Positions 6,584 through 54,289 of a stretch of 64,000 bases of DNA are shown here, piece after piece. The first letter of the stretch is position 1. Each line of letters starts with the position of its first letter. The DNA comes from a virus (Duplodnaviria > Heunggongvirae > Uroviricota > Caudoviricetes). The translations under genes were made by a program, and so were the position numbers. The notes below the pieces were generated by a model. That model saw nothing but the letters and a program-made list of their open reading frames with translations. It did no database searches and was not told where the DNA came from. The stretch is from IMG/VR virus record IMGVR_UViG_3300028422_000701. One strand, written 5' to 3'.

Positions 6584-6814
6584 CCCAACCTTTTCTTATA
6601 TATAGATCACATAAGAATTTTTAATTTTTGTGGTGTAAAATTAAACGAAACATACTGGGTGGTATATTTATGTACCCCCAATACAAAAGTAGTTTAAAAG
6701 CGCTTTAAATAAGGTAAAAAAGGGGGTGTTATTATTAATTTTTATAACAATATTAAGGGTAGTAAAAACTATTTCCAAACAAAACAATACTTCAATGTTT
6801 GGTATAAGTTCGAC

Positions 6815-7357
6815 GTGCCTTACAAAGATGGTAGTGGTAAAACGTTCTTACGAATATATAAAGATGGAACTATAAAAACTAAAGAAGGAAGAGTTTTAAA
6901 ACGCCGTAGACAAAAAGATGGTAATGGTAAATATTTCATTTTTGTAAAAATAAAACACAAAGGTGTTGAATATAATTTTGAATATGACAGGGTAATTTAT
7001 AAAGCTACACATCCTGAATGGGATTACAAAAGTAAGGAACGTGTACTACATAAAGACGACAATTTATTTAATTCGAGACCAAGTAACTTATATTTAGCTC
7101 CACCATATAAGAAACCTAAGAAGTATACAGTGGAAACGAAAAAACTTATGAGGTACTTATATAGGTACACTGAATTAAGTTTACGTGAGATAGGTGAAAT
7201 GCATGGGTGTACAAAACAATTAGTTTGGAAATTTGTGCATGAGGTCGAGGATGAAATTGGAAAAGATAAACTTAATCCTGAGAACTATCATGAAAAGTTT
7301 AAAACACAGCTCAAGTTTGACAAAGTAACGGGAAAATTTATTTCTAGAAATTCATAA
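6815..7357 (+). CDS. HNH (HNH_3-type) homing endonuclease with C-terminal HTH
   Basis: VLHKDDNLFNSRPSNLYLA HNH_3-like motif; sigma-70 region-4-like HTH LSLREIGEMHGCTKQLVWKFV. Confidence 0.5.
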   Translation: MPYKDGSGKTFLRIYKDGTIKTKEGRVLKRRRQKDGNGKYFIFVKIKHKGVEYNFEYDRVIYKATHPEWDYKSKERVLHKDDNLFNSRPSNLYLAPPYKKPKKYTVETKKLMRYLYRYTELSLREIGEMHGCTKQLVWKFVHEVEDEIGKDKLNPENYHEKFKTQLKFDKVTGKFISRNS

Positions 7358-30171: not shown

Positions 30172-31103
30172 CTAAAATAATGTATTTTGTTTTGGTTTTG
30201 TACCATAAGTACAAACGTTATCTTTTGCTTTTTGTTCTAAGTACTTTATGTTAAATAAAGTTCTCTTCTTGTAGTCTTCACTAAGTTCCTCAATGGTATA
30301 ACCAAACTTATTTACATAACTAGTTATTGCCTTTTGTACTGGTAATGATTGGTTAACAAAGTGTTGTTTTTTGTTGGTACTTTTGTCACTTAATAGTATG
30401 GCACCAAAGTCTGACATTACACCACCATTAGCACTTTGCATAATCCAACTACTTGCGTCTGCACTGTATAATGGAAATTGTGCTATTAAATCAAAGTCTT
30501 GTACCCCTAAGGCATGAACCTTAATATCAGGATTTTTGCTATGTTTAATAATTTCAAATATCTTATGCAACTTAGCAACCTTTTCTGCCTTTGTTTTACC
30601 TACTATATTTCCAATAGCAACTAAATCTACTTTAGGTTCAAAGTTAAGTATATTCTCTAAATACATAGTATTACTACCAGCATGAAATACAGGAACAAGT
30701 TTTTGTGGACTTTTTACTTTACCATACATATATAAAAAGTTTTCCCACGTTTTCTTATTAGCTTCTAAACGTTCCTGACTTGTAGCATTTTTACCCAATC
30801 TGCCTGGTATTGAATCTACTTCCATAAAGTAACGTAAACCATCGTCCCATTTATTAACGTAAGCAATGTATTCATCTATGTCTACACTAACACCACGTGT
30901 CCAAGCAGTGAATGCACCACTATCTAAAAAAGTTAATTTACCTGCTGCACAACGTTTCTCAAATGGTCTTTTATCGTTCCAGTAACTTAATAACCTGTGT
31001 AGGTCTTGTTGGTCTATATACTCGTCAGCTTCAGGACACTGAACCGGACGCCAGCAAAATAAATATTAAAAGGTTTTTTATCTTTTAAATTGTTGCTGTT
31101 CAT
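30172..31103 (-). CDS. dpdA: DpdA-like (TGT-family) 7-deazaguanine DNA transglycosylase, 5' end disrupted by a +1/-1 frameshift
   Basis: ATG 31103 opens a 29-codon frame ending at 31014; the overlapping frame 31065 to 30172 contains FLDSGAF (TGT DSG motif) and VHALGV. Confidence 0.55.
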
Positions 31104-31108
31104 AATCA

Positions 31109-31819
31109 TCACTCTCCTTTATATTTCCAAATATAACCCAAACCTGTCTTGTTTACACCTTGTAAACACTTACCAATAGTATCAACACAACAATTATTAT
31201 CTTTTGCCGCTTGTACTATACTTGGATAACTATTTAAAAATTTTCCTTCTTTACTATATTGTTCTATTTCTTTACCCATAATTAATTTACAGTTTTTATG
31301 TGCTAGTATTTCTGGTAACAAATAAACCTCGTGTTCATATAACCATACATACCCCTTACATAATATTTTATTACGACAAGCATAATTAATACTATTATAA
31401 TGAACCTTCATTTGTTTGGCAGCTATACCACTACTTTCAAAAATGTTTATTTGGTTACCATTTAAATCGTATTGTAAAACTGTTTTACTTCTTTTGTTGT
31501 CCTTACCACTATTAACAGGACAAGCATCCCCACCTATTGTTGAATTAAAACCTTTATTATAACTATTATATAAATCAACATAGTAAATTTCTTTTTGTTT
31601 TAACTCTTTCATTGTGTTTGCATTATCTATAACTTCCCACGTAAAGTAATCTTTTGGATATTTACTTAGAGCCTTTTGGAATTTGTGGTTCTTTTTAAGG
31701 TCGTAATAATGTTTTTTAATACGTTCTTTTAAGGTATGGGTAGTTATTCCAATATAAACTCTTCCATCTTTATGTGTGCATTTGTAAACAATGCCTTCCA
31801 TATTATTCTCCTTTCTCAT
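31109..31819 (-). CDS. GIY-YIG homing endonuclease
   Basis: GIVYKCTHKDGRVYIGITT GIY-YIG motif. Confidence 0.65.
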   Translation of the reverse strand: MRKENNMEGIVYKCTHKDGRVYIGITTHTLKERIKKHYYDLKKNHKFQKALSKYPKDYFTWEVIDNANTMKELKQKEIYYVDLYNSYNKGFNSTIGGDACPVNSGKDNKRSKTVLQYDLNGNQINIFESSGIAAKQMKVHYNSINYACRNKILCKGYVWLYEHEVYLLPEILAHKNCKLIMGKEIEQYSKEGKFLNSYPSIVQAAKDNNCCVDTIGKCLQGVNKTGLGYIWKYKGE

Positions 31820-32880: not shown

Positions 32881-33648
32881 TTATAATATTATATTACCTT
32901 CACTTGGTTTAATGTCTCTTTGTAATAAGTAAAGGTATGCATCTTTAATATCATTTTCTTCTTTAGCACCACGACCATATGTACCGTTGTCAATTTGTGT
33001 CATAACAAGTTTTAAGTAAGCCATAACGTCACTTAATACATCGTCACTAAATTTCATACCATTTAGCATAAATGCAATAACTTTTCTAACACATGGTTTA
33101 CATTTAAAACAAGGTTTTCCATCGTGTGGGAAGTAACAACTAAAACTGCCGTTCCATGCTTCTTCTAGTGTACCACCTTTGTCTAAATACATTTTAAGTA
33201 ATTCACGTTTAGTGTATTCTTTAAAGTCTACATTAATACGTATATTACGTTCTTCAGTCCAGTGTTGTTTTTGGTACAAGAAACTAAATAGTTCTCCTGC
33301 CTTTTGTGCGAACTCAGGACTCTTATCTAAAACTCTGTCCCCGTAAGTTGCACCCAAACATATTTCATCGCCATAGTTAGTTGCTATAGCAGTAAAATAT
33401 AAGTTACGTAAAGGAATTATTTTATCTTCCCTTTCAATACTATGTAGGTTAAGTACATCTTTTAGTACAATAACATCACTATCTAGTTTACTTATTTCTT
33501 CTTTACTATAGCTACTATTAATATCTATGTATAGTTTTACATCAGGTTCCCATATTTTACTTATTAACCAACTATCCATACCACCACTATAAAGTAGTAC
33601 TTTTTTACTTTTTGGGTTAAAGTCTGTCATAACCATTACCCCTTTCAT
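32881..33648 (-). CDS. queC: 7-cyano-7-deazaguanine (preQ0) synthase
   Basis: PP-loop LLYSGGMDS; C-terminal zinc cluster CYFPHDGKPCFKCKPC. Confidence 0.65.
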   Translation of the reverse strand: MKGVMVMTDFNPKSKKVLLYSGGMDSWLISKIWEPDVKLYIDINSSYSKEEISKLDSDVIVLKDVLNLHSIEREDKIIPLRNLYFTAIATNYGDEICLGATYGDRVLDKSPEFAQKAGELFSFLYQKQHWTEERNIRINVDFKEYTKRELLKMYLDKGGTLEEAWNGSFSCYFPHDGKPCFKCKPCVRKVIAFMLNGMKFSDDVLSDVMAYLKLVMTQIDNGTYGRGAKEENDIKDAYLYLLQRDIKPSEGNIIL

Positions 33649-38840: not shown

Positions 38841-39275
38841 CTAATCCTCCTCTGTGTAAGTTGCGAAACTTGTTGGTGTTTCGTATAATTTAATTTCTGT
38901 TACCTTCATACCTACTGGCAATGCCTCATTTATATCTTTAAACATAATACGACTCATGTTTTCACAAGTAGTTCTACAACCTATTACTTTATTTTTGTAA
39001 CCAAGTTCTTGGATATATTTTAAAATAGGTTCGTCACCACAAGCAATAAATGCGTGGTCATATTTTGATAAGATAGCTTCTTCTACGATAGATTTTAAGT
39101 TTTTAAAATCTATTATCATACCCTCTTTAGGGTGGGCTGTAATACTTTCAACTACTGGACCTGTTAAGGTTACAAATAGTTTATAAGTATGTCCATGAAT
39201 ATTTTTACATAAACCATCATGATTTAGTAATTGGTGAGAACAGTCAAAACTGTACTCTTTTGTTACGGTTAACAT
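38841..39275 (-). CDS. queD: 6-carboxy-5,6,7,8-tetrahydropterin synthase
   Basis: CSHQLLNHDGLCKNIHGHTYKL (Cx..HGH zinc motif). Confidence 0.7.
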   Translation of the reverse strand: MLTVTKEYSFDCSHQLLNHDGLCKNIHGHTYKLFVTLTGPVVESITAHPKEGMIIDFKNLKSIVEEAILSKYDHAFIACGDEPILKYIQELGYKNKVIGCRTTCENMSRIMFKDINEALPVGMKVTEIKLYETPTSFATYTEED

Positions 39276-39557: not shown

Positions 39558-40244
39558 TTATTTAATTGCTTGTAAAAATCTTTCTTCTAAGTGTTTATCA
39601 GTTCTAAATACACCTCTTGTACTTATAGTAACTGTACTACTATCAAATGGTGCTTCAACTCCTCTGGCTGTCATACAAGTATGTGTTTCTTCTAAACAAA
39701 CAATTACACCTTGTGCGTCCATTTCTTCCATTAAAGCATTTGCTATTTGATCACTTAGTCTTTCTTGTAGTTGGAAACGTTTAGCGTAACCTTCTACCAT
39801 TCTAGGTATTTTACTTAAACCAACTACTTTTTTATTAGGTAAATAACCAATACTTACATAACCATAAACAGGTAATACGTGATGTTCACAAACACTACGG
39901 CATTCAATACGTTTAACAATTACAATATCGTCATTACCACTATCTTTAAAGTTATAATCTAGGTCATCGTCATCTAAGTTAAATTGTACTTCTAAGTAGT
40001 CTTTAGGATTTTCACAATAACCTCTTGTCATTTCAAGCCAAGCTTTAACTACTCTAAAAGGTGTGTTTTTCATACCATTACTTTCACTATCACCACCACA
40101 AATGTCAATAAGTTTAGCAATACTAGGCATGATTTCGTTTTCTATACTTTCCATTATATCGTTATGGTCACCACTGCCTTTAATAATAACTCTATTTATG
40201 AGTAGTTTATTTATTTTTTCACGTTGTTTTTCATTTAATTCCAT
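39558..40244 (-). CDS. folE: GTP cyclohydrolase I
   Basis: CEHHVLP zinc-binding motif plus a D/N-rich insertion. Confidence 0.75.
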   Translation of the reverse strand: MELNEKQREKINKLLINRVIIKGSGDHNDIMESIENEIMPSIAKLIDICGGDSESNGMKNTPFRVVKAWLEMTRGYCENPKDYLEVQFNLDDDDLDYNFKDSGNDDIVIVKRIECRSVCEHHVLPVYGYVSIGYLPNKKVVGLSKIPRMVEGYAKRFQLQERLSDQIANALMEEMDAQGVIVCLEETHTCMTARGVEAPFDSSTVTISTRGVFRTDKHLEERFLQAIK

Positions 40245-40253
40245 ATTTCCTCC

Positions 40254-41021
40254 TTACACGCCCTGCCTATTACCCCATACCAAAGTATGAAGTTGTAACA
40301 TAACATAAACGTCTTCCATATCACTTTCTAAAACCTTGGTAACAAGTTTTTCATAATCTTGTATTACCCTGTTTCGTACATTTAATATATCTTGTTCCCC
40401 AACGTCAGTGTTACCAACATTTAAGTACAATTTTATACCAGTTCTATTTGTACGTAGTTTAATATCTTGTATTAAGTTATAGTATCTACGAGCAAATTCA
40501 AAATCCTCGTCGTTAAATACTGGTATTTTAATTGTAACAGGTAAATTAAAACGTACTTTAGGATTATACATTAACCAATTACCTACGTTATCAATTACAT
40601 CAGGTTGTCCACTAGATGGTGCTTTTGGGCTAATAACCACATTGTCTACCTTGTCTAGCCAATCAGGTAATTTACTACCTTGTGTTTCAACATCCACTTT
40701 AATGTCAGCTTCATGTAATGCATTAATAACTTTACTAAAGTCATATAAACAAGGGTTACCACCTGTTAGTACAACATTTTTTGTATTTGTGTCTTGACAT
40801 TTAATTATTAATTCAAATAGTAGTTCATCTTCAGTATACACTTTTGTGTCATTATTTCTCTTCCAAGCAAACTTACTATCACACCAACTACAATTAAAAT
40901 CACACCCTACAACTCTAACAAATAAAGTTTTTTTACCTGTGTTAGGACCTTCTCCTTGTATTGTAGGACCTCAACCGAACACTTCGGCAACAGGTATTCT
41001 TACTGTTCTTTCGGTATTCAT
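40254..41021 (-). CDS. queE: 7-carboxy-7-deazaguanine synthase (radical SAM) interrupted by an in-frame TGA
   Basis: ATG 41021 gives MNTERTVRIPVAEVFG, then TGA (plus-strand tca 40971-40973), then GPTIQGEGPNTGKKTLFVRVVGCDFNCSWCDS continuing into the annotated ORF. Confidence 0.7.
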
Positions 41022-41587
41022 ATGTTATCACTCTCCTTTATATGTTTCCACGAACGGTTGTTATAAATATCCCATATAGTAGCATATTTTATATTAGGAT
41101 ACTTTTTACAAACGTCTTTTAAACATATCTTTTTATATTTCATATTTTTAATGTCTTGTACTATATTAACATTAAGTAAACAGGCTGGGTTGTCTACCCC
41201 TAACCGATTACGTAAATGAGTTCGTATAGCGTGTTGTGTATTTTCTTTAGCGGTTACCCATTCTAAGTTGTTAACAAAACAATTATTTTTGTTGCCATCA
41301 ATATGGTTAACCTGTGGTAAATTATCAGGATTTGGTATAAAAGTTTGGGCTACCAATATGTGAACTAAATGTTGTTGTTCCTTACCATCTTTACATAAGG
41401 AAACAACGGGGTATCCGTTAGGTTTAAATGTATTTTTCTTTATAACACCTTTAAACGTACGAAGTCTACCCATACTATCTGTGTAAGTTCTATCAAGACT
41501 TCTTACTGTTCCATAATTAGATATCTCATACCAACCTTCATAGTTAGGAATCGGTTTAAATATTTCTGCTACTGGTATTTTAACCAT
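41018..41587 (-). CDS. HNH homing endonuclease with AP2-like DNA-binding domain
   Basis: GWYEISNYGTVRS AP2-like; NHIDGNKNNCFVNNLEWVTAKEN HNH_3. Confidence 0.6.
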   Translation of the reverse strand: MVKIPVAEIFKPIPNYEGWYEISNYGTVRSLDRTYTDSMGRLRTFKGVIKKNTFKPNGYPVVSLCKDGKEQQHLVHILVAQTFIPNPDNLPQVNHIDGNKNNCFVNNLEWVTAKENTQHAIRTHLRNRLGVDNPACLLNVNIVQDIKNMKYKKICLKDVCKKYPNIKYATIWDIYNNRSWKHIKESDNI

Positions 41588-51017: not shown

Positions 51018-51094
51018 TGGTACACCCTGTAAGACTCGAACTTACGACCTTCTGCTTGTAGAACAGATGCGCTAACCAACTGTGCTAAGGGTGC
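51018..51094 (-). tRNA. tRNA-Val(UAC) with unusual C33
   Basis: acceptor GCACCCT/AGGGTGT; loop TCTACAA. Confidence 0.5.
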
Positions 51095-51205
51095 ATGACG
51101 TGGCTTCTTTATTTGTGTACCTTTATTACAGGGTATTCGATGTACCCACCTGAAGCCGATCCCCACTTCATCTAGTTTATGTACGGGGGATTTATTTTTA
51201 ATTTA

Positions 51206-51282
51206 TGGTGTATCTGAAGGGACTCGAACCCATAATCTTTTGGTTCGTAGCCAAGTGCTTTATCCAGTTAAGCTACAGATAC
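51206..51282 (-). tRNA. tRNA-Arg(ACG)
   Basis: acceptor GTATCTG/CAGATAC; loop CTACGAA. Confidence 0.6.
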
Positions 51283-51285
51283 ATA

Positions 51286-51399
51286 TTAACCACGTTTTTT
51301 CTTTTTATTAGTTTTACCTTTACTAGTAGTAGTTGCTATTTTAGCAAAGTGTGCACTAAACTTTTCTTGTTTGTGTTTACTACCTTTTCCTTTTGCCAT
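51286..51399 (-). CDS. 37-aa lysine-rich small protein
   Basis: MAKGKGSKHKQEKFSAHFAKIATTTSKGKTNKKKKRG; RBS aaggagtga 9 nt upstream. Confidence 0.3.
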   Translation of the reverse strand: MAKGKGSKHKQEKFSAHFAKIATTTSKGKTNKKKKRG

Positions 51400-51423
51400 A
51401 TTAATCACTCCTTAATTATATAA

Positions 51424-51500
51424 TGGTGCGCCACCGAAGACTCGAACTTCGGACCTCTCACGTATCAGGCGAGTACTCTAACCAACTGAGTTAATGGCGC
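51424..51500 (-). tRNA. tRNA-Ile(GAU)
   Basis: acceptor GCGCCAT/GTGGCGC; loop CTGATAC. Confidence 0.7.
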
Positions 51501-51503
51501 AAG

Positions 51504-51578
51504 TGGTGCATCCAGAAAGATTCGAACTTTCAACCTCTACATTAAAAGTGTATTATTCTACCATTGAATTATGGATGC
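51504..51578 (-). tRNA. tRNA-Lys(UUU)
   Basis: acceptor GCATCCA/TGGATGC; loop CTTTTAA. Confidence 0.6.
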
Positions 51579-51579
51579 G

Positions 51580-51747
51580 TTATGTATCTTGTGCACCCTT
51601 ATACTTTCGTTTTCTAGGTATTAGATACTTTAATGACTTATGTACTTTACCACCCTTCATGACTTGTTCTTGATGCCATAAATTGGGTAACTTAGCATAA
51701 TCTATTTTGTTTGTAGGTAATTTTATAACTTGTTTTTTCTTACTCAT
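51580..51747 (-). CDS. 55-aa basic small protein
   Basis: MSKKKQVIKLPTNKIDYAKLPNLWHQEQVMKGGKVHKSLKYLIPRKRKYKGAQDT; RBS agaggtga; ends 2 nt before tRNA-Lys. Confidence 0.3.
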   Translation of the reverse strand: MSKKKQVIKLPTNKIDYAKLPNLWHQEQVMKGGKVHKSLKYLIPRKRKYKGAQDT

Positions 51748-51770
51748 TTTAATCACCTCTTATATATTTA

Positions 51771-51846
51771 TGGTGGAGAATAAGGGACTCGAACCCTTGA
51801 CCTACTGCGTGCAAGGCAGTTGTTCTACCAGCTGAACTAATTCCCC
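51771..51846 (-). tRNA. tRNA-Ala(UGC)
   Basis: acceptor GGGGAAT/ATTCTCC; loop CTTGCAC. Confidence 0.7.
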
Positions 51847-51850
51847 ATAA

Positions 51851-51928
51851 TGGTCGGGATAGAGGGATTCGAACCCCCAACGCCTCCGCTCCAAACGGAG
51901 AGTTCTACCAAATTGAATCTACATCCCG
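51851..51928 (-). tRNA. tRNA-Pro(UGG)
   Basis: acceptor CGGGATG/TATCCCG; loop TTTGGAG. Confidence 0.7.
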
Positions 51929-51952
51929 ATATAGTTAGTTAAATAAAATATG

Positions 51953-52234
51953 CTATCTTATTCTTTCTATTGTTTGACCTTGGTTGTTTAATAAAAATAC
52001 TCCTGCATACAAACTTGGTCTACTTTCTTTGTCTAATATTTTAAGTTCTACTTCTTCATCAGTTGGTATTCTATTTAATGGTAATGTATATAATAATTCC
52101 TTACTTCTATACATATTTATAAAATCCCTATTTGACGCATCTGTAAATGTGTTTACATTATCTATATCGGCATATATGTGCTTATGTCCATCTATAGACA
52201 ATCCTTTACTATATTCAACTAATTCTACTATCAT
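51953..52234 (-). CDS. hypothetical protein embedded in the tRNA array
   Basis: 93-aa ORF. Confidence 0.35.
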   Translation of the reverse strand: MIVELVEYSKGLSIDGHKHIYADIDNVNTFTDASNRDFINMYRSKELLYTLPLNRIPTDEEVELKILDKESRPSLYAGVFLLNNQGQTIERIR

Positions 52235-52280
52235 TCTATCTTATCTCTTTTCTATCTAACTATCTATCTAACTAACTATT

Positions 52281-52357
52281 TGGTGCCAGTAACAGGACTT
52301 GAACCTATAATCCCACGGGTATGAACCGTGTGCATTAACCATTTGTGCTATACTGGC
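52281..52357 (-). tRNA. tRNA-Met(CAU) elongator-type (or Ile2 if lysidinylated)
   Basis: acceptor GCCAGTA/TACTGGC; arm CACGG-TTCATAC-CCGTG. Confidence 0.65.
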
Positions 52358-52360
52358 ATT

Positions 52361-52434
52361 TGGTTGCAGTTGCTAGGATTCCAACCTAGTATCTTCCTAT
52401 AACGAGGCGTGCGTGCATCACACTCTCAACTACA
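52361..52434 (-). tRNA. tRNA-like gene, anticodon unresolved
   Basis: T-arm CTAGG-TTGGAAT-CCTAG and acceptor TGTAGTT/AACTGCA plus CCA; anticodon arm pairs poorly. Confidence 0.35.
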
Positions 52435-52438
52435 TATA

Positions 52439-52514
<76 letters not shown>

Positions 52515-52521
52515 ATATAAT

Positions 52522-52598
52522 TGGTACTCGTTGATGGACTTGAACCACCGACCGCTCGCGTATAAGGCGTTTACTCTAACCAACTGAGCTAAACGAGC
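52522..52598 (-). tRNA. tRNA with anticodon UAU (Ile-AUA reader?), weak anticodon stem
   Basis: acceptor GCTCGTT/AACGAGT plus CCA; loop CTTATAC. Confidence 0.4.
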
Positions 52599-52671
52599 AA
52601 TTAGCGTACCACTTTGATATAAGGTCCAAAATGTTTCCAACTGTAAACTCCCTATGGGTTACCATAATTTT

Positions 52672-52752
52672 TGAACTGGGGAGGACTCGAACCTCCATAC
52701 CCAAACTTGTTGTGTTGTACGTACAACGCTTTTCCAATTAAGCTACCTGTTC
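52672..52752 (-). tRNA. degenerate tRNA-like element (no encoded CCA)
   Basis: T-arm GGAGG-TTCGAGT-CCTCC, acceptor GAACAGG/CCAGTTC with one mismatch; 12-nt palindrome TTGTACGTACAA replaces a normal anticodon arm. Confidence 0.3.
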
Positions 52753-52759
52753 ATATAAT

Positions 52760-52832
52760 TGGTGGAGTCATTAGGATTCTAACCTAAATTGAAGGCAACG
52801 CGTGACTTACTTCTAGTAACATACTTTTCCCC
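52760..52832 (-). tRNA. degenerate tRNA-like element
   Basis: T-arm TTAGG-TTAGAAT-CCTAA and TGACTCC-A-CCA 3' end, but the 5' acceptor matches 5 of 7. Confidence 0.3.
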
Positions 52833-52840
52833 ATATAAAT

Positions 52841-52941
52841 TGGTGCGGACGGGAGGGATCGAACCTCCAAACTTGTGTACTTAAAGCCTGCCTTAAAAGT
52901 CATGAACAATTAAGGGTGTATACCCATTTCACCACGACCGC
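52841..52941 (-). tRNA. long (about 100 nt) tRNA-like element
   Basis: T-arm GGAGG-TTCGATC-CCTCC, acceptor GCGGTCG/CGTCCGC (1 mismatch), CCA encoded; anticodon region does not resolve. Confidence 0.3.
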
Positions 52942-53394
52942 ATTTTGTGTTACCTCACTTGTTTTTTAAAAGGTTATAGAGTAACTATTTACTGTTATTT
53001 CCCTTTAGTACCTTATAGGCACTGTACTAAATAATACATTAAAGTTTTAAATTAATCATTACGCTTAGATTAATTCTTTGCGTTATGGCAGGTATCTCCA
53101 TTTGTATTTATCAGCTTAACAAATAAAATAAAAATAACTTTTACCCGCTGTATTTTTATATTTTATTTAGTACACTAACTACAAGAGTTAATGTGTATAG
53201 TAATGCCTCGGACTCATTACTAAATTTCCTACACTAAGGTATTACCTTAGACCGAGTAGCATATTGTAGAGTTATTAACTCCTTTGTAAGATGTAAACAT
53301 ATTGCAATGTTTTATGTTTTTAGTCAGCTGTTTTACAAATATTAAACATAAACTCATACATCTTACAAAGCAAAGAACAATTTTATTTGCTCTT

Positions 53395-53454
53395 GGCGGG
53401 GCAGTAGGATTTTACCTACCGTTAGTATTACTACTAACACCTTTGTCCCCCGCC
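53395..53454. ncRNA. 60-nt three-helix tRNA-like structured element
   Basis: GGCGGGG ... CCCCGCC outer helix enclosing GTAGG-ATTTTA-CCTAC and GTTAGTA-TTAC-TACTAAC hairpins. Confidence 0.3.
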
Positions 53455-53587
53455 AGCAACAAACAAATGTTGCCCCTAGTTTACAGGTTATACGCTTCCT
53501 CTGTTGTAGCTCATTCTGCGTTAACCATAATTTCGGTCGATACTTTGCTACAAGGGTTTACCAGCATCTTTCCCTTAATTTTTAATA

Positions 53588-53677
53588 TGGCGCCAGGAGA
53601 GGGATTCGAACCCGCAGTACGCTTTCACGTACACTGGTTTTCAAGACCAGCTCTTTCACCAATTCAGACATCCTGGC
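53588..53677 (-). tRNA. tRNA-Ser(UGA)
   Basis: acceptor GCCAGGA/TCCTGGC; loop CTTGAAA; long variable arm. Confidence 0.7.
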
Positions 53678-53841
53678 ATCTCTTCGCCAAGGAACCTTTG
53701 TAAGTCACGTTTTTGTCTTGTTCTTACATAGCCACTTCCCATATTACGCTCACGTTTTCTATTTTTTGTATTTCTTCCGTGACCAAAGGCTGAGTAACAA
53801 CCAAGTACTTTTTTAACGTAACTATTTTTTGTTTTCATGTA
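53656..53841 (-). CDS. 61-aa basic small protein
   Basis: MKTKNSYVKKVLGCYSAFGHGRNTKNRKRERNMGSGYVRTRQKRD...; perfect RBS aaaggagg; 3' end overlaps tRNA-Ser by 22 nt. Confidence 0.3.
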   Translation of the reverse strand, partial: YMKTKNSYVKKVLGCYSAFGHGRNTKNRKRERNMGSGYVRTRQKRDLQRFLGEEMPGCLNW

Positions 53842-53880
53842 AATTACCTCCTTTAGAAGATAATCACACCCTTTCGTTAT

Positions 53881-53955
53881 TGGTTGGAAAGGTGGGAATC
53901 GAACCCACATGCTTAGATTCACAATCTAATACGTTAACCATTACGTCACTAACCA
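53881..53955 (-). tRNA. tRNA with GUG anticodon (His?) and imperfect acceptor stem
   Basis: arm TTAGA-TTGTGAA-TCTAA; T-arm GTGGG-TTCGATT-CCCAC; acceptor TGGTTAG/CTTTCCA has two U-U mismatches; no G-1:C73. Confidence 0.4.
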
Positions 53956-54121
53956 CATATTGGAGTCAGGTTTATTTCTGCACTTGGAAAACCCTTCACG
54001 AAAACCATCCAAAAATTTTTACATAAAGCTCAACGCCCTATATTGCGATTTAACCGAATCGACATCAGTACTTTATAATTTATTAAATCTTTGTATCTTC
54101 AATGGAATAATGAGTTCCACT

Positions 54122-54197
54122 TGTTGTTAATTGGAGAAAGTGATGGGATTCGAACCCACGTAATCTGCTTGGAAGGCAGATAGACTAGACCACTGTC
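54122..54197 (-). tRNA. tRNA-Gly(UCC)
   Basis: acceptor GAGAGTG/CACTTTC; loop CTTCCAA. Confidence 0.7.
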
Positions 54198-54289
54198 CTA
54201 CACTCTCAAGTTACCTTATACATACAGGTCGGTATATATAAGGTTGTATTCCTATGGAATTTCGTTTGTTAATTTAACTTAACAAATTA

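Follow-up and report, generated by a model that had tools for sequence, protein, structure and literature searches.

How can a phage obtain one protein from a gene whose start and body lie in different reading frames? The question is raised by dpdA, a gene for a predicted transglycosylase of the tRNA-guanine transglycosylase (TGT) type, in a 64,000-nucleotide (nt) stretch of Caudoviricetes DNA (IMG/VR record IMGVR_UViG_3300028422_000701; this whole stretch is hereafter called the window). The gene lies directly behind a GIY-YIG homing endonuclease gene (HEG), and a 5-nt insertion separates its two frames. A second gene of the window, queE, carries a 6-nt insertion behind an HNH-type HEG, and a related lineage has a 7-nt insertion at the same dpdA codon. 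We propose that these gaps are probably HEG-linked insertions in endonuclease target sites, which ribosomes would cross by short hops of the peptidyl-tRNA.

The minus-strand frame that begins at ATG 31103 reads MNSNNLKDKKPFNIYFAGVRFSVLKLTSI and ends at TAG 31016-31014; ATG 31109 and GTG 31112 are further starts in the same frame. The conserved body, YLFCWRPVQCPEADEY...FLDSGAF...NTLF, lies in a frame that stays open between 31065 and its stop (30174-30172) and whose first ATG, GTG or TTG is ATG 30825, downstream of the DSG motif. An earlier sequence-only reading of the window had reported this split, and its minus-strand coordinates are right: the ATG 31103 frame stops at 31014, the TGT body sits in the other frame and is startless before DSG, and the two frames overlap without a homopolymer slip site, over about 50 nt whose longest run is a T4 (31059-31056). 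Two details needed correction. Relative to the ATG frame, the body lies at -1 (= +2) and not at +1, and the start that overlaps the TGA of the upstream GIY-YIG HEG, as TGATG, is not ATG 31103 but ATG 31109, the first in-frame ATG of dpdA.

Homologs place the lesion exactly. Those of Bacillus phage Flasso and Streptococcus phages Dp-1 and MS1 begin M.FNLYFAG(9 residues)LxxxxxxRL, so that homology extends over FNIYFAG in the ATG frame as well as EADEYIDQQDLHRLLSY in the body frame. Closer dpdA relatives, at 62-68% identity, were taken from IMG/VR, JGI, ENA and Logan assemblies. Their uninterrupted genes all read TAY TWY GCN GGN followed by GTN(ATA) CAR TGY CCN GAR; the window reads TAT TTT GCT GGC, then GTCCG, then GTT CAG TGT CCT GAA. 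Because the relatives run GGN straight into GTN CAR, the lesion is an exact 5-nt insertion, GTCCG (31049-31045), between GGC (G18) and the Val codon GTT (alignment to 7 close homologs), about 60 nt downstream of the HEG. Aligning both frames to DpdA homologs, as the sequence-only reading had proposed, thus located the lesion, which is this insertion rather than the single-base indel it had in mind. The first open reading frame (ORF1) is made up of an N-terminal extension of 11 residues, strand beta1 (FNIYFAG) and the codon GTC (31049-31047), from which we propose that the ribosome takes off. In this frame the insertion yields GTC CGG, with CGG at 31046-31044; GTT (31044-31042) is followed by CAG TGT CCT GAA, which encodes QCPE.

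The insertion is almost certainly not a sequencing or assembly artefact that masks an intact gene. The source is a metagenome assembly, known here from assembled contigs rather than reads, and a sequencing indel was one of three options offered by the sequence-only reading. However, the 5 nt do not form a homopolymer, and Logan contig L010 (SRR7216773; reported in two runs) matches the window base for base over 8654 nt, insertion included. This contig ends about 20 kb before the window does; the window therefore stems from a different assembly, and the two assemblies agree. The 217-amino-acid (aa) truncated dpdA call recurs in JGI and Logan data, as does a 195-aa truncated queE call, and the analogous 7-nt insertion, at the same codon in another lineage, is present in two further samples. 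An error is thus effectively excluded. A megablast of the locus against the phage collection gave no match, nor did an exact search of IMG/VR for the dpdA junction.

Insertions in queE and in a second lineage

The sequence-only reading had named the GIY-YIG gene upstream of dpdA without linking it to the lesion, and it had missed a second gap in the window. Directly behind the HNH HEG, queE reads TTC GGT TGA GGT CCT within its invariant FGPTIQGEG motif. In the 14 closest QueE homologs, residues E13, F15, G16, P17, T18, I19, Q20, G21, E22, G23 and P24 are invariant and contiguous, and none of about 65 further queE genes in the fetched loci is interrupted at this site. The window's queE gene call is a 195-aa fragment without the radical-SAM cysteines, and it is the only short call among the 120 best database matches to queE. 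Rebuilt with one Gly for GGT TGA GGT, QueE matches TIGR03365 (Bsubt_queE) over its full length at 220.8 bits (cut-off 206.1). A degenerate search of IMG/VR for other queE stop-hops gave no match.

The two loci share their arrangement. An identical 16-mer, TATAAAGGAGAGTGAT, which covers the HEG end, a Shine-Dalgarno (SD) sequence and the start region, occurs at both HEG/target junctions (31108-31123 and 41027-41042), though the HEG families differ; in 100 shuffles it had at most 4 matches with up to 3 mismatches. Scanning the window for single-stop splits or long startless 5' regions gave dpdA and queE as the only clear cases, with queE the sole gene split by a single stop. Both HEGs found sit directly upstream of these only two startless genes found, and Pfam scans of about half of the window's large ORFs showed no third HEG. 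As a separate observation, the DNA across the two gaps (31039-31049 and 40970-40980, minus strand) is identical at 9/11 positions, GTCCGGTTCAG versus GTTCGGTTGAG. Take-off and landing codons stand at different positions in the two, and the likeness may be chance (about 1%).

A third gap comes from a second lineage. L013 (JGI 3300051636) reads TAC TTT GCT GGT, then GTTTGAC, then GTA CAA TGT CCA GAA, a 7-nt insertion at the codon position of the window's insertion; L244, a 99.5% variant from a sister sample, has the same gap. L013 has no complete HEG, and between queC and dpdA it has about 95 nt more than HEG-free L178. The extra sequence consists of the last ~20 codons of a HEG (..KTDAGYIWKYKEED; ..GYIWKYKEED; each ending at the stop), a strong SD and an N-terminal extension; the extension, ..ITGKEKNF-KFNTYFAG, is similar to MNSNNLKDKKP-FNIYFAG in the window. 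A 19-mer from the HEG 3' end matched 65 IMG/VR contigs through the GYIWKYK C-terminus common to many HEGs, so the L013 remnant shows only the past presence of a HEG of such a type; the junction module is absent from all 65.

Among close relatives the gaps follow the HEGs. In the clade the window is the outgroup (DnaN 30-36% identical), not a sister of L013, whose nearest relatives, L178 (88% DpdA identity) and L177, have neither HEG nor gap. Within the close clade, the gap is present in both lineages with a HEG or HEG remnant and in 0/9 HEG-free lineages (L004, L174, L175/176, L177, L178, L011/012, L245-248, L249-251 and L252); among about 165 more distant dpdA loci, 0 are broken at the gap site. 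The gap site of HEG-free genomes is about 27-50 nt away from the HEG insertion point, which is consistent with the proposed target-site immunity and hops. A co-conversion tract common to the window and L013 was sought at the protein and nucleotide levels and was not found. The motif FEKRCA, which the two seem to share, occurs in HEG-free L178 too.

Different as they are in length, the three gaps obey one rule. At 5, 6 and 7 nt (window dpdA, window queE and L013 dpdA) they cover all three phases. The flanking codons share a four-fold box each time (GTC/GTT, GGT/GGT and GTT/GTA, in the same order), and in 3/3 gaps no earlier triplet of that box lies between the take-off codon and the landing codon 3' of it. 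Directly after the take-off codon stands CGG in the window's dpdA and TGA in the other two; CGG is the rarest codon of the window (5/17008, or 0.29 per 1000), and GTC is the fifth rarest. When the repeated codon is counted once, the ancestral protein is restored exactly in 3/3 gaps, with no residue gained or lost. We computed how often chance would give this pattern by enumerating every insert of the observed length at each gap site. The probability of a codon pair that restores the protein is 0.12 per gap, and 0.012-0.016 per gap when a stop or one of the three rarest codons is also required in the A site. The joint probability for the three gaps is about 2e-6, an order-of-magnitude guide only, as "slow" was defined post hoc.

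Proposed hops and competing explanations

We suggest that each insertion belongs to a cassette. At dpdA this would consist of the HEG, the common SD/start module, a new N-terminal extension, a few native codons and the 5-nt insertion, placed in conserved DNA that, in phages without the HEG, is most likely the site of recognition or cleavage by the endonuclease. The insertion would shield the carrier genome from its own endonuclease and leave the invariant protein segment unchanged. Ribosomes would translate MNSNNLKDKKPFNIYFAGV and stall with peptidyl-tRNA-Val on GUC, the A site being occupied by CGG, the rarest codon, which lacks a phage tRNA to read it. The tRNA-Val would then unpair and re-pair with the next GUN triplet, GUU, 5 nt downstream, and translation would restart at CAG, giving YFAGVQCPEADEY as in every uninterrupted homolog; the predicted DpdA peptide across the junction is ..IYFAGVQCPEADEYIDQQDLHR. 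By the same logic, queE behind its HNH HEG would be decoded by a GGU-UGA-GGU stop-hop (+6), and L013 dpdA by a GUU-UGA-C-GUA hop (+7). Of the three options in the sequence-only reading, an unusual translational event is now the best supported, in the form of a short Val-codon hop over a hungry codon and not of a frameshift. The hop, its efficiency and the immunity function are what we infer from this pattern.

Apart from the gaps, the genes and their pathway are intact. The window encodes FolE, QueD, QueE and a QueC-like protein, the whole preQ0 pathway feeding DpdA. DpdA keeps 33/33 columns that are invariant in 15 homologs, and QueE keeps 81/85, inside the range of other family members. Between L013 and L178 the dpdA body has a nonsynonymous rate (dN) of 0.067 and a synonymous rate (dS) of 1.20, hence dN/dS 0.056, compared with 0.086 for queC and 0.125 for dnaN. 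These intact bodies exclude long-standing pseudogenes and remain compatible with recent inactivation.

An AlphaFold2 (AF2) model of the hop product folds as a TGT-type (beta/alpha)8 barrel at a pLDDT (per-residue model confidence) of 91.7. In it ORF1 supplies beta1 (residues 13-17, pLDDT ~95), and the junction falls in the beta1-alpha1 loop. The top Foldseek matches of the model are bacterial, human and archaeal TGT (prob 1.0, TM ~0.6). The best PDB sequence match, a weak one, is the solved DNA-guanine transglycosylase 7ui4, whose GDCGAFT aligns with DSGAF. Residues D59, G61, A62, S212, D214 and W218, in the DSG and SAD..SW motifs, are invariant in 16 sequences, and the Asp residues of these motifs are presumably catalytic. 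PHROG 887 ("queuine tRNA-ribosyltransferase") matches the body at 1e-46, and tblastn finds annotated phage DpdA/TGT genes. DpdA has no Pfam match and scores 18.6 bits against the NCBIfam DpdA equivalog (cut-off 200); judged by sequence, it seems to belong to a phage clade rather than to be the equivalog of bacterial Dpd islands. It is predicted to insert 7-deazaguanine into DNA.

The most serious competing explanation keeps the HEGs and drops the hops. HEG-linked insertions at target or cleavage sites, arising by imprecise repair or as resistance to self-cleavage, would have inactivated dpdA and queE; the 7-deazaguanine modification would have been lost recently, and hopping would be negligible. 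In this form the recent pseudogenisation that the sequence-only reading had listed stays the main rival, not the best-supported option; we judge it unlikely, with a substantial chance nonetheless of being right. It explains the HEG association equally well, and a number of observations weigh against hopping, several of them in its favour. RNA folds around the gaps are no better than those of shuffles (z = -1.1, -0.4), so that no stimulatory structure was found, and the landing codons have no SD-like element 5' of them and none of the GAG/GGA type at gene 60 spacing. Short hops in E. coli constructs are reportedly inefficient as a rule, at about 1%. Two lesions in one pathway also fit relaxed selection, and break repair, instead of selection for matching codons, could have left the GT or GGT duplicated around some bases of filler. 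Neither ATG of the ORF1 frame survives in L013 (ATC and ATT remain after the strong SD), and a TTG opens the body frame, as in the 311-aa gene call P0006; this copy may be decaying, or using a new N-terminus or another solution. Two of the three single-nucleotide differences between the dpdA genes of L013 and L244 are nonsynonymous. HEG-free L011 (at ~1132-1134) and L012/L014 (ENA ERZ27247962; JGI 3300018405) have an in-frame TAA at a conserved Tyr of dpdA (EYIE, stop, VNKYD), which splits the L011/L012 gene into ORFs of 73 and 217 aa. Seen in two data sets, this plain nonsense codon means that dpdA-null phages circulate in the clade. Finally, the case consists of three gaps in two phage lineages, and the contigs known for each lineage are nearly identical; the insertions may thus be recent, in which case the intact bodies would tell nothing. 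In favour of hopping, a repair scar leaves three things unexplained: the stop or rarest codon after each duplicated codon (chance ~0.1 each), the stop inside an in-frame 6-nt insert in queE, and a like pattern behind the unrelated GIY-YIG and HNH families. Inactivation also has to reckon with about 1150 codons of folE, queD, queE, queC and dpdA without a further lesion, and with the low dN/dS of the L013 dpdA body.

Other routes to a full-length product are improbable, and ordinary random mutations more so. Rescue could in principle come from -1/+1 frameshifting or transcriptional slippage in dpdA, from UGA read as Trp in queE (low-level UGA read-through is known in Bacillus), from a prfB-like +1 shift or a TTG start in L013, or from reinitiation. 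The attraction lies in L013, where the TTG start of P0006 is open and where GUU UGA C resembles the +1 site CUU UGA C of prfB (release factor 2), with a P-site codon ending in UU and UGA in its weakest context; a +1 shift there reaches the body frame. Unlike prfB, however, the gap in the window's dpdA needs -1/+2/+5, a +1 slip would leave tRNA-Val mispaired at position 1, no SD stands upstream at the prfB spacing, and the product would bear two extra residues. Nor does the window's dpdA offer the means: there is no X XXY YYZ heptamer between 31065 and 31014 and no significant downstream structure for a -1 shift, and from GUC or CGG a tRNA could not re-pair at either -1 or +2. For slippage, the longest run is the T4, where a shift loses the conserved AG, and an A6 run (31078-31073) lies upstream of the body-frame stops. 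Reinitiation is opposed by bodies that are startless before 30825 (dpdA) and 40841 (queE), past essential motifs, and read-through or a +1 shift by the 2 residues that it adds to motifs of invariant length in all homologs. Three mechanisms would be needed where one rule fits all gaps. Independent random pseudogenising mutations unrelated to the HEGs are very improbable indeed: frameshifted genes are common in metagenomic phage contigs, but here the same codon is affected in two non-sister lineages, both HEGs among the scanned window proteins precede the only two broken genes, the ~165 dpdA and ~65 queE homologs are unbroken at the gap sites, and the pattern of matched codon and slow codon has the joint chance given above.

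Three further candidates were rejected. A code in which TGA is sense (4/25), suggested by JGI call P0038, would not repair dpdA anyway. All conserved Trp codons in dpdA and queE are TGG, TGA terminates six ORFs of 120 aa or more and, doubled as TGA TGA, the HEG, and the window has no other TGA-split gene and no tRNA with a UCA anticodon. A +2 hop from ATA TAG to ATA GAC at the end of ORF1 fails on the EADEYI homology, which continues upstream in the body frame. A group I intron or a gene split around the HEG fails on the position of the homologous N-terminus (FNIYFAG), downstream of the HEG.

Relation to known bypassing and homing systems

Phage T4 gene 60, the only natural case that has been studied well, is reportedly bypassed together with a cassette that carries the MobA homing endonuclease. 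The 50-nt gap and the MobA HEG form a mobile cassette in which the insert protects the carrier from cleavage and leaves the conserved segment unchanged (bioRxiv 10.1101/2022.08.31.505936). In the wider gene 60/MobA family, N-terminal extensions were added, the gap was kept after loss of the HEG, the stop was swapped for a hungry codon and GIY-YIG replaced MobA (Manning & Atkins, bioRxiv 10.1101/2022.08.31.505936). Each of these features has a counterpart here, and we therefore propose the dpdA and queE gaps as immunity inserts of HEG cassettes. In both systems a HEG stands directly upstream, followed by an N-terminal extension, a short native stretch and a non-coding insert in a conserved segment. 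The take-off codon precedes a stop or a rare hungry codon, some lineages have lost the HEG and kept the gap, the HEG family is interchangeable, and target-site protection is the proposed purpose.

The differences from gene 60 are equally clear. The gaps here measure 5-7 nt instead of 50, and neither a take-off stem-loop nor an internal SD was detected around them. The nascent peptide has only 16-19 residues, the targets are dpdA and queE, not topoisomerase, and the HEG lies before the gene start instead of splitting the gene; bypass is here a prediction. Unlike the MobA cassette, ours has other HEG families and other host genes, and no sequence homology links the two, so the likeness is one of working and not of descent. 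The finding would extend the HEG-plus-bypass cassette known from gene 60 and, if confirmed, would include the first natural in-frame stop-hop.

Stop-hops and hungry-codon bypassing have reportedly been seen in E. coli, and tRNA-Val is said to be a known hopper. In synthetic stop-hops, matched codons flank the stop and 9 nt are decoded as one amino acid, and hungry-codon bypassing is established in E. coli (PMC5009743). More generally, hops arise in synthetic constructs when matched codons surround an A-site codon that is read slowly (Atkins et al. 2016, PMC5009743). No natural in-frame stop-hopping was known as of that 2016 review (PMC5009743). The sequence logic here is the same, with shifts of +5, +6 and +7; unlike those laboratory constructs and low-level errors, the gaps lie in natural and otherwise conserved genes. 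That these are the first natural programmed short hops, among them the first natural in-frame stop-hop, in modular mobile cassettes whose interchangeable HEGs carry a minimal gap of 5-7 nt as target-site immunity, and that the phage's U34 four-box tRNAs (Val-UAC, Gly-UCC) promote them, the aberrant tRNA at 52672-52752 with its G33 and long variable arm above all, is a combined claim we consider doubtful.

The byp elements of Magnusiomyces capitatus mitochondria are short mobile inserts bypassed between matched codons (Lang et al. 2014, as related in PMC5009743). In that second-hand account they resemble our gaps in striking conserved genes, in being harmless through bypass and in occurring several to a genome. 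They differ in their 27-55 nt length and mitochondrial setting, and they have no HEG link.

As HEGs, the two genes resemble the free-standing endonucleases of phages (T4 Seg/Mob; intronless homing): GIY-YIG and HNH genes lie between conserved genes, their targets are in the neighbour's conserved coding DNA, and carriers differ from non-carriers at the target. Known carriers, in contrast, are protected by substitutions, or by the long bypassed insert of gene 60, and are not known to be protected by frame-breaking inserts of 5-7 nt. As for the enzyme, the body is 32-44% identical to phage DpdA/TGT proteins (Dp-1 gp7, Flasso, DpdA of the E. coli phage 9g type) and shares their TGT-like fold with DSG and SADxxSW. 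The downstream order dnaN, Cas4-like exonuclease, RecU is that of Flasso, Dp-1 and MS1, with preQ0 genes near. Unlike the window's gene, dpdA of Dp-1, Flasso and the 9g type is one uninterrupted ORF.

If the hops are real, HEG-linked bypassing is not confined to T4 gene 60 and would be a general means of target-site protection inside invariant protein motifs. The gaps would also offer natural minimal substrates for studies of peptidyl-tRNA hopping, at 5-7 nt, in three phases and with a stop or a hungry codon. Such genes are called truncated or missing, as the 217-aa dpdA and 195-aa queE calls illustrate, and phage DNA-modification pathways would then be wrongly scored as defective. If instead the gaps kill the genes, homing endonucleases knock out an anti-restriction DNA-modification pathway, a cost of selfish elements.

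Feature coordinates and further observations

Table 1. Features of the window at and around the dpdA and queE loci, with the basis of each assignment.
Feature	Coordinates	Strand	Basis or remark
GIY-YIG + NUMOD1 HEG, 236 aa	31109..31819	-	Pfam GIY-YIG 4e-07, NUMOD1 1.6e-16; PHROG 314 homing endonuclease
Junction module TATAAAGGAGAGTGAT (HEG end, SD, start region)	31108..31123	-	two exact copies in window
dpdA ORF1, codons 1-19, MNSNNLKDKKPFNIYFAGV	31047..31103	-	reading of sequence; homolog alignment; AF2 model
5-nt insertion GTCCG (coding gap)	31045..31049	-	absent from L004, L174, L175, L177, L178, L011 and others
Proposed landing codon GTT (Val)	31042..31044	-	first GTN triplet 3' of take-off codon
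dpdA body (QCPEADEY...FLDSGAF...NTLF, stop)	30172..31041	-	PHROG 887; tblastn; invariant columns; TGT fold
TAG ending the product without hop (29-aa peptide)	31014..31016	-	sequence
NUMOD4 + HNH_3 HEG	41018..41587	-	profile scan; TGA overlaps queE ATG 41021 (ATGA)
queE ORF1	40974..41021	-	N-terminal extension, conserved IPVAEVFG and putative take-off codon GGT (40976-40974)
queE gap, 6-nt insertion: in-frame TGA (40973-40971) and putative landing codon GGT (40970-40968)	40968..40973	-	homolog comparison
queE body (PTIQGEG...WGNRQGV)	40254..40967	-	first start GTG 40841, after radical-SAM cysteines
queD (PTPS), intact	38841-39275	-	Pfam/profile scans
folE (GTP cyclohydrolase I), intact	39558-40244	-	Pfam/profile scans
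QueC-like gene, intact	32881-33648		Pfam/profile scans
Phage tRNA cluster	51018..54207	-	tRNA search
tRNA-Val(UAC)	51018-51094	-	candidate hopping tRNA
tRNA-Gly(UCC)	54132-54207	-	candidate hopping tRNA
Aberrant Val(UAC)-like tRNA gene	52672-52752	-	Infernal 44.5 bits; candidate hopping tRNA

The window carries 25 tRNA genes. Its Arg tRNAs are Arg(UCU) and Arg(ACG), and none of the phage set reads CGG. The aberrant Val(UAC)-like tRNA has the anticodon loop CGUACAA, with G33 in place of the near-universal U33, and a variable region of ~13 nt; a connection with Val hopping is pure speculation. Another tRNA gene (52844-52941, minus strand; ARAGORN Met, CAT; 101 nt) carries 21 inserted nt in the region of its anticodon loop, perhaps an intron or a sign of a degenerate gene.

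No close homolog of the GIY-YIG HEG protein was found, hence no further cassettes could be traced through it. JGI call P0038, which covers the window's HEG, reads that gene's TGA codons as Trp (..KYKGEWWLWTATI). Evidently the JGI gene caller chose a code-4 model for a contig of 30% G+C and P0038 is an artefact of the caller; other JGI calls on the contig may be wrong likewise.

Relatives show further irregular genes. Several distant dpdA loci (L024, L040, L111, L112, L120 and L127; L049, L096, L085, L086 and L089) have duplicated N-terminal modules, either MDLYFAG...MDLYLVGPEKEN in one ORF or a separate N-terminal fragment ~400 nt upstream, and at some distant loci dpdA paralogs stand two or three in tandem. 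The family A DNA polymerase gene, polA, is split in L178 (4630-7204), L244 (1-1763) and L013 (306-974). In L178 about 280 nt separate a 678-aa ORF from an 86-aa C-terminal ORF downstream, and in L244 a GIY-YIG+NUMOD3 gene adjoins the polA fragment; the split genes suggest that further HEGs or introns are active in this phage group. In L244, queC and dnaN looked decayed only through runs of N left by scaffolding. Elsewhere in the window, on the plus strand, a 214-codon open frame (6713-7357) has its first ATG, GTG or TTG 34 codons in, directly after an SD-like stretch of the GGAAAAAAGGAGG type, and may use a non-canonical start.

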